Below, piece by piece: positions 1,108-34,846 of a DNA stretch of 64,000 bases. The notes beneath the pieces are model-generated. The model made no database searches and was not told the DNA's origin. It worked only from the letters and a program-made list of their open reading frames with translations. A program made the translations under genes and the position numbers. The stretch comes from Leucoraja erinacea (taxonomy: Eukaryota): NCBI RefSeq assembly GCF_028641065.1, contig NC_073397.1, forward strand, positions 31,248,001 to 31,312,000, given 5' to 3'. Each line of letters begins with the position of its first letter. Position 1 is the stretch's first letter.

Positions 1108-1628
1108 CTGTAGAGGAAATAATAACCAAAAAATAATAATTACTGAAACTGTCTATCATTACCATTCACAGCATCATACCTGAAATAACTTTACTCCTTT
1201 TAGCTTCCTTACCTTAGAAATGGTCAAACTTAAAACTGCACCATCAGACATCAAGTATAGGGAGGAATTGCAGATGCTGGTTTTACACCGAAGATCGACA
1301 CAATTGCTGGAGTAACTCAGCGGGCCAGGCAGCATCGCTGGAGAAAAGGAACAGGTGACATGTCGGGTCGAGACCCTTCTTCAGACAGATGAAAGGTCTC
1401 GACTCGAACTGTCACCTATTCCTTCTCTCCAGAGATGCTGCCTGACCCGCCGAGTTACTCCAGCAACTGTGTCTAGCATTAGACATCTATCTCTATCTTC
1501 AATAAATAGATGATGCAAGATTTTATTTGATGATGATGATGATGATACATTAATGTCACATGTACTTTAGAGTGAAATTCGTTGTTTTTCATGCACTACA
1601 CAAAGTGTGCAAAGAGTCGCCACCCATA

Positions 1629-2432
1629 ACTTTACACCCATATTTTAAGAAAGGCGGGAGAGAGAAAACAGGGAATTATAGACCAGTTAGCCTGACATCG
1701 GTGTTGGGGAAGATGCTGGAGTCAATTATAAAATATGGAATAGCGGCACATTTAGATAGCAGTAACAGGATCAGTCCGAGTCCGCATGGATTAACAAAGG
1801 GGAAATCATGCTTGACTAATCTTCTGGAATTTTTTGAGGATGTAACTAGGAAAATGGACAAGGACGGCCAGTGGATGTCGTGTGCCTGGACTTTCAGAAA
1901 GCATTTGATAAGGTCCCACATTCTTGGCATTCGTGCTATTGAGGGAGTACAGAGTATGTTCACGAGGTTAATTCCCAGGATGGCGGGACTGTCATATGTT
2001 GATAGAATGGAGCAGCTGGGCTTGTATACACTGGAATTTGGAAGGATGAGAGGCAATCTTATTGAAACATATAAGATTTTTAAGGGTTTGGACATGCTAG
2101 AAGCAGGAAACATATTCCCATTGTTGAGAGGGTCCAGAATCAGGGGCCACAGTTTAAGATTAAGGGGTAAGTCGTGTAGAACGGAGATGAGGGGAAAAAA
2201 ACACCCAAAGAGTTGTGAATCTGTGGAATTCTCTGCCTCAGAAGGCAGTGGAGGCCAATTATCTGGATGCTTTCAAGAGAGAGTTAGATAGAGCTCTTAA
2301 AGATAGCGGAGTCAAGGGTTATGGGGAGAAGGCAGGAACAGGGTACTGATTGTGGATGATCAGCCATGATCAAATTGAATGGCGGTGCTGGCTTGAATGT
2401 CCTACTCCTGCACCTAGTGTCTATTGTCTATT
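1629..2432 (+). mobile_element. CR1 LINE fragment (RT pieces, internally deleted, with 3' tail), specific to arm A
   Basis: ORF has FKKGGREKTGNYRPVSLTSV and KSCLTNLLEFFEDVT, plus a ctattgtctatt tail. The empty site (gtcgccacctatagagcgccgacag) is seen in arm B near 15910-15930. Confidence 0.9.
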
Positions 2433-3868: not shown

Positions 3869-5404
3869 CCGTCTCACGATCTTACGAAGGAGGAAAAACT
3901 GTTCTCACGTTGCGAGTTGAGACAAGAGGTACCCCGAGTGAAAGACTCGTGGTTGTGTACGAGATTGCAAGTGTATGATCAAGAGTTTAACCGAGTTCCC
4001 ACGGGTATGACAAGTTTGCCGTTTACTTGTCATTTCTGCGATGTTCCAAGTTCGTCTCCCGAGTTACTCTTGAGCCAATCCTGATTGAAGGTTTGTTTTA
4101 ATAAGCAACAGTGTTATGTTTTAATAAGCAACAGTGTTAAAGAAGACCTCTCCATCCTGTGGCTTTGTTTTAAAGATATAATTCAAAGCGGCCGCATCTA
4201 TTGATGTGAGCTAAATAGGGAAAATGCGCCCCATCCAGTGCCAGAGCAGTTATGCTATGTGATGAAGTTCACTCCCATTTGAAAATTTTGCAATATTTTA
4301 ATCATATAATCCCATTCTACTTGATCAAACGCTTTTTCTGCGTCCAATGAAACTACCAGAGCAGTTATACTTATAATTTGTTTGAAACACGCAGGTTTGA
4401 TATGTTTTAATTGAATTTGCTGCCATGTCTACACACTGCGGGGAGACGGGAGATATAACTCTTTGAATGTGGACGGATATGCACATCAGATTGTTGTGAG
4501 ACGGAGCCCAGGGTTCGCCCCCTGAGTTGCTTCGGTGCCCAGGCGTGAGTTGAGATTACCGTCGAATTCCTCCCCATCGTCCCGGCTCTACGGTTCATCC
4601 GGGAATGATGTCTTTTTGGGGAATGTCTGGCAATTTCTTCGGGGTCACCGTTCGGTGGACCAGAGATACGACGGCGAGTTCGCTTCTGGCCAACACAATG
4701 AAGGAAGTAAATCGCGTGTTCACTGAACACAGGGGGCAGCTTCTAACTCAACGAACCACGGCGCTAGGTTGAAAATGATGCTACTGAAAAGTGGCTTTTT
4801 ATTTTTGCATTGTAAGCTTGACACAAGTATGCATACTCGATTGAGAACTCATTCATTCATCCAAACTCGATTGAGAAAGTGAAGTAGGGGATGCTCTCTG
4901 GTAGCATGGATACTTTCAGTGTCGTTATGACATGTTTGTGGGACGGGGTGGAATCATGGGTGACGGATAACATTGGGGCGGCCAAGGGGCTGCACAAATC
5001 CAGATGTTCACATGTAATAAAGTGTAAATGATGATGGCAGCCGGGCGATAACAGCGGCTGTGGTTCAACCCGGAGTGTGGCAAATTGCAGAATTGAAAGC
5101 TGAGATAAGCGATTGGACAGGATAGATGCAGGAAAAATGATCCCAATGTTGGGGCAGTCCAGAACCAGGGAGGGGGGGAGGGGGGGGGGGGTCACAGTTC
5201 AGAACCCGGAGAGTTGTGAATCTGGAATTCTCTGCCATGAAGTCAGTGGAGACCAATTTACTGGATGTATGCAGAGATAGTTAGATTTAGCTCTTAGGGC
5301 TAACGGAATCAAGGGATATGGGGAGAAAGCAGTAGCGGGGTACAGATTCTGGATGATGCCATGATCATATTGACGGTGTCTAAATTAACTAAATTGTGTT
5401 TATC

Positions 5405-18338: not shown

Positions 18339-20715
18339 CAGATTCAGATTCAGATTCAGATTCAGATTCAATTTTAATTGTCATTGTCAGTGTACAGTAC
18401 AGAGACAACGAAATGCATTTAGCATCTCCCTTGAAGAGCGACATAGCAAACGATTTGAATAAAAAAAAAAATATATATATAATAAGTGTCCGGGGGGGGG
18501 GGGGGGTGATTGGCAGTCACCGAGGTACGTTGTTTAGTAGAGTGACAGCGGCCGGAAAGAAGCTGTTCCTCGACCTGCTGGTTCGGCAACGGAGAGACCT
18601 GTAGCGCCTCCCGGATGGTAGGAGGGTAAACAGTCCATGGTTGGGGTGAGAGCAGTCCTTGGCGATGCTGAGCGCCCTCCGCAGACAGCGCTTGCTTTGG
18701 ACAGACTCAATGGAGGGGAGCGTGGAACCGGTGATGCGTTGGGCAATTTTCACCACCCTCTGCAATGCCTTCCGGTCGGAGACAGAGCAGTTGCCATACC
18801 ATACTGTGATGCAGTTGGTAAGGATGCTCTCGATGGTGCAGCGGTAGAAGTTCACCAGGATCTGAGGAGACAGATGGACCTTCTTCAGTCTCTTCAGGAA
18901 GAAGAGACGCTGATGAGCCTTCTTGATCAGAGTAGAGGTATTGTGGGTCCAAGAGAGGTCATCGGAGATGTTGACTCCCAGGAACCTGAAGCTAGAAACA
19001 CGTTCCACCTCCGTCCCGTTAATGTGGATGGGGGTGTGCGTGCCGCCTCTGGACTTCCTGAAGTCTACAATGAGCTCCTTGGTCTTCTTGGAGTTAAGGG
19101 CCAGGTTGTTGTCAGCGCACCATGCTGCTAAGTGCTGGACCTCCTCCCTGTAGGCCAGCTCATCGTTGTTGCTGATGAGGCCAATCACCGTTGTATCATC
19201 TGCATACTTGATGATGGTGTTAGTACCATGTACAGGTGTGCAGTCATAGGTAAAGAGGGAGTAGAGGAGGGGGCTCAGCACACAGCCCTGAGGAACGCCG
19301 GTGTTCAGGGTGAGGGTTGAAGAGGTGTGCTTGTCTAACCTCACAGACTGGGGTCTGTTGGTTAGAAAGTCCAGTATCCAGTTGCAGAGGGAGGGGTCGA
19401 TGCCCAGGTTACTGAGTTTGGTGATCAGTTTTGATGGAATAATGGTTTTGAATGCTGAGCTGTAATCGATGAACAGCATTCTTACATAAGTGTCTCTGTT
19501 GTCAAGGTGGGAGAGGGCGGAGTGAAGTGCCGTTGAGATGGCATCCTCCGTACTCCTGTTCTTGCGGTAGGCAAACTGATAGGGATCCAGTGTGGGGGGT
19601 AGGCAGCTTTTGAGGTGTGCCAGGACCAGCCTCTCGAAGCACTTGGTGATGATGGGGGTAAGTGCAACTGGGCGTAAGTCGTTGAGGCTTGCCGCAGTGG
19701 AGTGTTTTGGCACTGGCACGATGGAGGTGGCTTTAAGGCAAGTGGGGACAACTGCTTGGGCAAGTGACAGGTTGAAGATGTCAGTCCAGACGTCTGTCAG
19801 CTGCGCAGCACAGGCACTGAGCACGCGCCATGGGATGCCGTCAGGGCCAGCAGCCTTACGTGCATTAGTCCTACTCAGTGCCACGTACACGTCGTAGGGG
19901 GTGAGTGTGAGGGGTTGGTGATCGGCAGGTAGCACAGCCTTGATGGCTGTCTCTAGATTGTCCCTGTCGAAGCGGCCATAGAAGTGATTCAGCTCCTCAA
20001 GGAAGGAGGCGTCGCTGGATGTGGGGGTGATGTTGGAGGGTCTGTAGTCCGTGATGGCCTGGATGCCTTGCCACATGCGTCGGGGGTCGGAGTTGTTGTT
20101 GAAGTGCTCCTCAATCCTGAGCTTATGGCAGTGCTTGGCCTTCCTGATGCCCCTCTTCAGGTTAGCCCTGGATGAACTGTAGGCTCGAGCATCGCCTGAC
20201 CTGAAAGCGGTGTCCCGTGCTTTCAGCAGTAGCCTGACCTCGCTGTTCATCCATGGCTTCTGATTCGGGTATATGGTCACCTGTTTGAGGGAGGTGACAC
20301 TATTGATGGTGGAGTTTATAAAGTCCAGAACAGAGGATGTATAGGAATCAATGTCCGTGTGAGAGTCAAGGGTGGCCTGGGCTGCAAACGCCTTCCAGTC
20401 AGTGTTTCCAAAACACTGCTGAAGTGTGAAGTCCGCTTCCTCTGACCAGACTTTAACTGTCCTTACAGTTGGTTTAACCCGTCTGATGAGTGGGGAGTAC
20501 TTAGGGAGCAGGAACAATGAGACGTGATCAGACTGACCAAGGTGGGGGAGGGGGGATGGCTTTGTAAGCTTCAGCCATATTGGTGTAGACTTTGTCCAGT
20601 GTCTTGTCTACTCTAGTGGGGAAGGATACATGTTGGTGGAATTTGGGGAGTACAGTCTTCAGGTTGGAGTGGTTGAAGTCACCCGCAACAATGAAGGCTG
20701 CCTCGGGGTTGTGCG
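18339..20715 (-). mobile_element. Rex1/Babar-clade non-LTR retrotransposon, 5'-truncated, young
   Basis: Uninterrupted 666-aa RT region (18517-20517: KAAGPDG, FIDYSSAF, GVPQGCVLSP, KYADD, LLPSGRRYRS). Endonuclease C-terminus (VAGDFN...SDH) lies upstream, offset by one extra C in a homopolymer. (GAATCT)n tail at 18339-18370. Confidence 0.92.
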
Positions 20716-33642: not shown

Positions 33643-34094
33643 CTCCCACTTAAAATGAAAAAAAAAATTACATTCATCAGAAAGGTGGCAAAAACACATC
33701 CATGCACAAATTGGTTCAGTTCACGATGTGCAAAAAAAATTTGCTTACAAAGTTACTGCTCCCCAATATGGTGAGGGAGCAAGTCATTTAATTCAAATGC
33801 AAGCATTCTTCGCTATTTAGTTTTAAGTTTATTATTGTCACGTGTACCGAGGTACAGTGAAAAGACTTGTTTTGCATGCTGTCCAATCAGATCAGATAAT
33901 ACTATACACAAATACAACCCGGTCAAACTGGGTACAATGGATAGAGCAAAGGGAATGATACAGAGTGCAGAATATAGTTCTCAGCATTGTAGTGCATCCA
34001 TCAAAAAACACAGAAGCATGAAAGAATAATGGAATTCTTTGTTCCTGTTTGTTGGATGAGAATAATTCTCCAAACACGCTCTGGAAAGATAATC

Positions 34095-34718
34095 TGTAGA
34101 TGGCTAGTGCATGTGCCTTTAACATAGTGACCTCACCACCACTAACCACTCCCCCTATTAGATGTATAATTGCAACCTCCCCACCTATAGTTCTCTCTCT
34201 AGCTCCGGTGACAGACCACGTACAGCTAGAACTGTAGTACTTGTGAACTGTTAATAAACAATTAGTAAAGACACGATGTGTTGGTGAGACTTCTTTACAT
34301 GGTGTCAGAAGTGGGATACGAACCCACGCCTCCAGTTGGAGACCAGAAGGAGGAGGAGGTGGCGAACAGCACACCCGGTCTGGCAGGCTGGTTAAGCCGC
34401 CTGTCCGGTATGGGGATTTCGCTTAGTTGTTTAACTGTTTGTTTACCTGCTTGTAGCGCATGAGACGTGGTCGCTTGGTCACTACTGTATTGCTTTGTTT
34501 CTAAGAGGAAGGATGTAGATGGCTAGTGCATGTGCCTTTAACATAGTGACCTCACCACCACTAACCACTCCCCCTATTAGATGTATAATTGCAACCTCCC
34601 CACCTATAGTTCTCTCTCTAGCTCCGGTGACAGACCACGTACAGCTAGAACTGTAGTACTTGTGAACTGTTAATAAACAATTAGTAAAGACACGATGTGT
34701 TGGTGAGACTTCTTTACA
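34095..34718 (+). mobile_element. TRIM (miniature LTR retrotransposon): two identical 205-bp LTRs, tRNA-Leu PBS, PPT, 5-bp TSD
   Basis: LTRs at 34095-34299 and 34514-34718 (TG...CA). PBS starts at 34300. PPT AAGAGGAAGGA at 34503-34513. TSD TAATC at 34090-34094 and 34719-34723. 214-bp non-coding interior. Confidence 0.95.
34300..34348 (-). other. 49-nt copy of the 3' half of mature tRNA-Leu(CAA) including CCA (extended PBS; not a tRNA gene)
   Basis: Minus strand reads TTCTGGTCTCCAACTGGAGGCGTGGGTTCGTATCCCACTTCTGACACCA, i.e. tRNA nt 38-76 with a long variable arm. Confidence 0.85.
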
Positions 34719-34846
34719 TAATCCAAGGGTCTTAACAGGTCTACGCGAAGCTGGGTAGTTAAAACAAATATTACTACTTCAAAAAAATGTGCACAGCATA
34801 ATTAATTAAAATAAAATGCAACTAATTATGACAATAGGAAAAATAC

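Follow-up and report, generated by a model that had tools for sequence, protein, structure and literature searches.

A short LTR element of the skate Leucoraja erinacea carries, directly behind its 5' LTR, a DNA copy of the 3' part of a mature tRNA-Leu(CAA), and it belongs to a set of about 390 such copies which, judging from plain sequence, is likely a passive record of tRNA modification in the germline. In the most far-reaching interpretation, with a probability of roughly 0.7, these failed copies would record the identity, the position and the rough level of m1A58, a variable-loop m3C and m1G37 at the time of insertion, and dead-end reverse transcripts would be routinely rescued; as part of the same joint reading, and held with the same confidence, the variable-loop m3C record would include a tRNA-Leu(CAA) site that is missing from the zebrafish list. 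The copy in the window (the whole stretch of 64,000 nt that was analysed) is very probably a one-off, internally deleted copy of a Ty3/gypsy element of about 4.7 kb, which lost about 4.1 kb when the reverse transcriptase (RT), still copying the attached primer tRNA-Leu, ran past m1A58, came to a halt at m1G37 and switched to a position close to the element's 3' end. The core of the preliminary description, an RT that read through m1A58 with an error and stopped at position 37, holds and is stronger than a single locus could show, while the fixed and stronger primer site that it proposed cannot be upheld.

The window element is 624 nt long and has two 205-nt LTRs without a single difference. 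Its features, all on the plus strand, are as follows.

34090..34094, plus: left target-site duplication, 5 bp, TAATC; single copy at the empty site of a related organism
34095..34299, plus: 5' LTR, 205 nt, TG...CA; 98% identity to the LTRs of the near-full-length relatives L091 and L092
34300..34348, plus: mature tRNA-Leu(CAA) copied into DNA, starting with the CCA end and reaching nt 38; first 8–11 nt only in normal elements
34318, plus: A opposite tRNA A58, T in the genes; putative misincorporation at m1A58
34335, plus: base opposite the variable-loop C, gene base in the window copy; putative m3C
34348..34349, plus: junction of the tRNA-copy end with the parent interior, about 4,090 nt downstream of the L091 primer site; 1-nt overlap; 98.6% identity
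34348..34513, plus: last part of the parent interior, about 165 nt; 99.4% identity to L004/L091
34503..34513, plus: polypurine tract, 11 nt, read from the sequence; same in relatives
34514..34718, plus: 3' LTR; 100% identity to the 5' LTR
34719..34723, plus: right target-site duplication, 5 bp, TAATC

The empty site was found in one contig of the related organism, where both flanks are joined over a single copy of the duplication. In structure, the element at 34095-34718 corresponds to a TRIM, being shorter than 1 kb and noncoding and having two LTRs, a primer site and a polypurine tract; an antisense frame overlapping it was without Pfam match, and ARAGORN and Rfam reported no tRNA gene and no RNA family in the window. 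A multi-copy family mobilised in trans was not found, as the window junction occurs once among 71 places reaching nt 38, and other short copies have junctions of their own. The earlier label of TRIM thus fits the anatomy but not the family. The window copy is probably inert, without a function of its own. Just left of the insertion, at 33826-34000, lies a very high-copy repeat (contig depth in the millions), and the window also contains RT reading frames at 18517-20607 (minus strand, with an ALKBH8_N-like domain after the RT) and 1554-2291 (plus strand), which we take to be typical of LINE remnants.

Positions 34300-34348 are complementary to nt 38-76 plus CCA of the host tRNA-Leu(CAA) at 48 of 49 bases, confirming the match described previously, and a chance match is contradicted by reversed-pattern genome controls, which gave 0 matches. 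The gene set used for comparison comprised 13 gene-like tRNA-Leu(CAA) loci with an intact 3' exon, obtained in two independent searches. All 13 have A58, with no T58 gene among them, so that T is expected at 34318, the only mismatch, where the window has A. All 13 likewise have the variable-loop C opposite 34335 (G on the copy strand), and none encodes CCA, which is nevertheless present in the copies. The genes contain a 30-nt intron after nt 37, nt 38 being the first base of the 3' exon. At 34349 the window has G, where spliced tRNA would give C, and the match therefore stops at nt 38 as originally described, with its end uncertain by 1 nt, since the last A also belongs to the acceptor sequence. 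The host genes are clustered (L144-L147, C12 cluster) and were miscalled as Thr or Cys by ARAGORN, which also called spurious tRNAs on many of the tRNA copies; tRNA-Leu(CAG) genes are clustered as well (L193-L202, C34 cluster).

A read-through site was defined as CCA plus 18 nt plus at least 7 more tRNA bases, and the genome contains 389 of them, compared to 0 in reversed controls. Every base is represented opposite A58 (T at 210 sites, A at 127, C at 29 and G at 23, the last two counted by hand from the full list), which supports the proposed read-through of m1A58 with misincorporation. The non-gene bases amount to 179 of 389 sites (46%) versus 37/1,542 (2.4%) at 18 control positions in sampled copies, and the state of the adjacent CpG, used as an age proxy, was similar for all four bases. 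The canonical T in 210 siblings is formally the outcome that was to make the window mismatch a private later mutation, yet that reading was not borne out: given the low variation at control positions and the identical window LTRs, the T is read as mixed read-through in independent events. The correct reading of A58 in 54% of copies counts against our reading, as it could correspond to unmodified tRNA or to correct bypass. According to the available part of one report, m1A causes arrest and misincorporation, with a dATP preference where m1A is followed by U (PMC4787781); unlike in that context, the candidate m1A58 of the host tRNA-Leu(CAA) is followed by A. Errors at A58 and in the variable loop were not coupled within the sampled copies (p 0.62). 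For primer tRNAs of another 3'-end type, read-through was sought with a single generic pattern, a weak test; it gave 1 match against 90 in the reversed control and hence no sign of the effect in that class.

Stops and misreadings were analysed in 165 copies taken in list order, comprising 61 of the 127 with A, all 52 with C or G and 52 of the 210 with T at A58. Within the sample, 162 junctions and 84 LTR ends differ from one another, so that the copies count as independent. Copying ends at 18 nt in some copies; beyond this, the chance of ending per base was about 1% at 25–34 nt (20/1,578), 24% at 35 nt (34/144), about 10% at 39–48 nt (71/695) and 56% at 49 nt, i.e. nt 38 (19/34). The stop before the variable-loop C is thus the strongest internal one (p 4e-25 against the upstream position-passes), and the stop at nt 38 likewise stands out from the passes before it (p 4e-10). 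Ends assigned to 35 nt include copies that misread position 36 and then jumped within 2 nt. At position 36, opposite the variable-loop C, the 96 copies passing it have A 55, G 28, T 8 and C 5, where the gene base is G. The variable-loop C was accordingly misread in 68/96 copies, compared to the 2.4% at control positions and 9–11% at CpG positions, with no dependence on the CpG-decay age proxy (p 0.35).

The position-specific stops together with misincorporation found in the copies are what m1A58, m3C-e2 and m1G37 would be expected to leave, and Leu tRNAs presumably carry m1G37. From their positions, from the signatures in other species and from general knowledge, we infer that stops and misreadings concentrate at m1A58, at a variable-loop m3C of the e2/47d type and at m1G37. 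Zebrafish tRNA sequencing, in the part of the preprint available, finds m1A58 in almost every tRNA, m1G37 in a large number of them and m3C-e2 (47d) in Leu-CAG and Ser (bioRxiv 2024.01.30.575011), and m1G37 is given for yeast Leu-UAA in the accessible text of a second source (PMC8062790).

The third of these marks has a modest rival in hidden gene variants, according to which the variation in the variable loop, though not the A58 and nt-37 signals, would derive from tRNA-Leu isodecoder genes that are missing from the assembly. The neighbouring position does follow a real gene polymorphism (T/C 66/19 in copies, 11/2 in genes), the assembly may be incomplete, so that gene variants are bounded by assembly searches only, and the zebrafish m3C-e2 list does not name Leu-CAA in the part available (bioRxiv 2024.01.30.575011). 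Unassembled CAA genes with T thus remain a rival for the dominant A. However, the two gene searches gave G in 13/13, the copies show three different non-gene bases rather than one, and the very same position is the strongest internal stop. The CAG-type tRNA provides a further comparison: a search for it yielded 25 places, namely 16 genes or gene-like loci and 9 copies (3 of the 9 without a primer-site start). The corresponding variable-loop site is here e2, a C and the second of three loop bases, for which m3C is reported in zebrafish, and the copy-strand base is G in 15/16 genes but in 0/9 copies (A 6, C 3; p 5e-6). One CAG gene of the 16 has A at this site (L195), which again speaks for gene variants. 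On balance, we consider it unlikely that missing isodecoders account for the variable-loop variation.

The abrupt end at nt 38 is best judged from the copies that reach this point. Of the 34 sampled ones, 31 end at 49 or 50 nt (nt 38/37), in line with the stop at position 37 proposed for the window copy, and 3 pass nt 37, the longest copy being 54 nt; ends at 50 nt are often explained by the acceptor's own C. None of the 59 non-gene CAA places reaching nt 38 continues into the intron, since the four intron-like bases with which two of them begin belong to element sequence, while 3/59 cross the spliced junction (L128, L160 and L164). Together with the CCA, this demonstrates that the template was mature tRNA, as in aberrant second-strand transfer. 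Among the CAG copies, 8/9 reach nt 38; at 37 they have A in 5 cases, T in 2 and G in 1, never the gene base, and 3 follow the tRNA further into the anticodon arm without a shift in register. As these intronless copies stop at or misread position 37, the barrier there needs no intron.

These observations also bear on the possibility that the template of the RT simply came to an end at nt 38, the primer having been either a 3' tRNA half or a 3' splicing exon that was still unligated. As nt 38 is the first base of the 3' exon, a single copy looks alike under both readings, and for the window copy alone a stop at m1G37 is indistinguishable from a tRNA cut at 37/38, which counts against our reading at this locus. 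A truncated primer would nevertheless leave unexplained the intronless CAG copies with the same barrier, the three CAA copies across the spliced junction and the fact that most copies end elsewhere, at 25 to 48 nt. Priming by a 3' tRNA half, raised earlier as an option, is not needed to explain the copies and is in our view very unlikely.

The parent family was recovered by a search with the window element, which gave 45 matches, most of them starting at query position 254, directly after the tRNA copy. Upstream of that point the relatives have several kb of coding sequence, and near-full-length relatives measure about 4.7 kb. In the long frame of the relative L098, Pfam detected RVT_1 (542-695), RNase H (761-891) and integrase (1000-1156). 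This order of RT, RNase H and integrase would place the parent among Ty3/gypsy-type LTR retrotransposons, the order alone being compatible with BEL/Pao as well; TG...CA ends, a tRNA primer site, a polypurine tract and a target duplication were also found. On the largest contig, the window LTR end followed by the first 8 primer bases occurs at 66 places, 16 of which have a perfect 18-nt tRNA-type site. Among the remaining 50, 39 were examined; all 39 of these normal primer sites pair over only 8–11 nt, and 38 run into the family leader. A second LTR was in view for 25 of the examined elements, 13 of which span 4.2–4.6 kb. By comparison, among the first 30 of 221 places with an 18-nt site only 1 enters the normal leader, and 17 run at least 23 nt into the tRNA. 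In total, 11 of the 66 primer junctions on the largest contig (about 1 in 6, L025 included) are read-throughs. Inheritance of tRNA sequence is thus almost always accompanied by rearrangement, which agrees with a primer site that does not normally derive from the tRNA. Two near-full-length elements retain the normal leader, L100 (primer site after the LTR at 4572, minus strand) with about 14 nt of the primer site converted to tRNA, and L179:325 with a full 18-nt tRNA primer site; both may represent rare correct inheritance of the primer copy. A leader motif resembling the tRNA variable arm/T-stem was observed in 33/52 normal leaders, about 21–29 nt after the LTR (L091-L110, L296-L335). This motif could pair with the variable arm/T-stem of the primer in the manner of a bipartite primer site, a predicted pairing with weak energies, in that the duplex z-scores were weakly better than those of shuffles (median -1.2, 8/52 below -2).

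With normal elements working on 8–11 nt, the idea of a mobile TRIM family in which selection has kept the 49 nt as a stronger primer-binding site loses its footing. The window copy does have TRIM anatomy and could pair over 48 nt with the primer, and a few junctions recur (L136/L148/L162; L169/L286). Yet the window junction is single-copy, nearly all sampled junctions are distinct, the recurring ones differ in LTR ends and sit on acceptor microhomology, and 0/165 extended copies continue into the normal leader. We therefore abandon the functional fixation suggested in the preliminary description and regard such a family as highly improbable. Finally, almost no weight can be given to the view that recombination or repair brought in the stretch from a tRNA gene once the element had inserted, and that the mismatch is a later point mutation: the canonical base in more than half of the sites would allow a single mismatch to be chance, and some copies are old, but the CCA tail, the spliced junctions, 46% variation at one position against a 2.4% background, the indifference of both variable positions to the CpG age proxy and the 0 differences between the window LTRs all speak against it.

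As the end of its tRNA copy is joined to interior sequence about 4,090 nt into L091, the window copy is a deletion product. Its origin is very probably as follows. Given that normal pairing involves only 8–11 nt, plus-strand strong-stop DNA containing 18–54 nt of tRNA would have a 3' end without an annealing partner and so become a dead end. Such DNA would arise when synthesis overruns m1A58 and stalls at m3C or m1G37; it would then be rescued by a jump, on 0–8 nt of microhomology, to an internal site, after which the copy would be finished and integrated. In the copies studied, as in aberrant second-strand transfer, tRNA sequence beyond the primer site defines the deletion junction and the LTRs are intact. 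Of 166 junctions (sample plus window), 78 were mapped onto 53 parents, with landing sites 67–4,433 nt into the parents, and microhomology of at least 2 nt was present at 15 of 28 clean junctions versus 7% at random. Among the 38 copies with a second LTR within the retrieved DNA, the median LTR identity was 98%, ranging down to 89%, and a crude script detected a target duplication in 18/38 (5 bp in 16 cases), a proportion that counts against our reading. Also counting against it, 20 of 77 mapped junctions are antisense (57 are sense, one self-hit having been dropped), and this quarter or so is not explained by a simple jump to the minus strand. Antisense junctions such as L127, L283 and L351 imply that synthesis changed to a plus-sense template and returned later, which suggests that the enzyme at times leaves the tRNA for the RNA of the element itself.

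Several copies depart from this pattern. The recurring landing sites L136/L148/L162 and L169/L286/L254 involve different LTR subfamilies and different bases at the modified positions, and may be jump hot spots on short microhomology. At L040:1510-1600 (minus strand; L237 is the same locus), a tRNA copy that extends to nt 38 is followed by a sense-strand tRNA 3' end with CCA and with another base at position 58, so that two read-through products appear to be fused head to head. In L049, L053, L060, L158, L221 and L261, synthesis resumed near the LTR end after the tRNA copy, giving a short duplicated LTR end instead of interior sequence.

Earlier retroviral work on such deletions exists, and the jump mechanism is already known from defective HIV proviruses. 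In the available part of one study, HIV-1 proviruses have 7–54 nt of tRNA-Lys3 at the deletion junction, with 5/44 changed at position 58 (PMC12657518). These inserts, attributed to aberrant or delayed second-strand transfer, resemble the skate copies in that a tRNA copy past the primer site defines the junction, but they are somatic and number 44 sequences, whereas the skate copies are germline-fixed, number about 390, belong to many Ty3/gypsy families and vary at three positions; the text available discusses the change at position 58 as a sequence mutation and contains no map of further marks (PMC12657518). For the HIV-1 plus-strand strong-stop products P2-P5 in vitro, the accessible account gives m1A58 as the major and the modified base 37 as a minor stop and describes the products as not serving transfer, in contrast to their integrated skate counterparts (PMC13191261). 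The variable-loop stop, unlike P2-P5, is particular to the long-arm Leu tRNAs. In Ty1/Ty3, as far as the available text goes, the primer sequence is not inherited from tRNA, the first plus strand copying into the tRNA and normally being discarded as a dead end, and a short primer site is kept independent of tRNA as in the skate elements; the yeast DNA stops at 12 nt and accumulates in particles, while the skate DNA extends over 18–54 nt and is found as deleted genomic copies (PMC5371799). Helenus TRIMs, in the portion of the source at hand, share with the window copy a short noncoding LTR structure with primer site and polypurine tract, but are multi-copy and have a tRNA-like promoter inside the LTRs (PMC10886601). 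The window element lacks the tRNA-derived polymerase III promoter inside the LTR that characterises Helenus/TRIMp3; its tRNA stretch is antisense, outside the LTR and single-copy.

The copies also resemble misincorporation tRNA sequencing, which, in the parts of these reports available, shares the stops and misreads at m1A58, m3C-e2/47d and m1G37 (PMC8062790; zebrafish tRAM-seq, bioRxiv 2024.01.30.575011; PMC4787781). That method is a laboratory procedure on extracted RNA, whereas the skate copies would be its natural, in vivo and datable equivalent: taken together, the approximately 390 copies behave like a modification map built from misincorporations, with three positions, of which one is absent from the zebrafish list. 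A search of openly accessible article texts found no earlier account in which retrotransposon copies fixed in a germline are read as recording several tRNA modifications.

RNA modifications normally leave no trace in DNA, and here the marks on germ-cell tRNA would be readable, position by position, from plain genome sequence. As LTR divergence can date each copy, it could be traced when the variable-loop m3C and other marks arose, or whether their levels changed, in species without tRNA sequencing. Through these copies the genome of an animal also lends support to the Ty1/Ty3 model, according to which elements do not take over their primer site from the tRNA, and the copies show how a full element may be reduced to TRIM size in a single step. 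If dead-end DNA is indeed routinely rescued, it accounts for roughly one in six primer junctions in this group and keeps yielding elements of TRIM size. In practice, consensus primer sites of at least 18 nt for such families may derive from defective copies, and such copies can lead tRNA gene finders astray.
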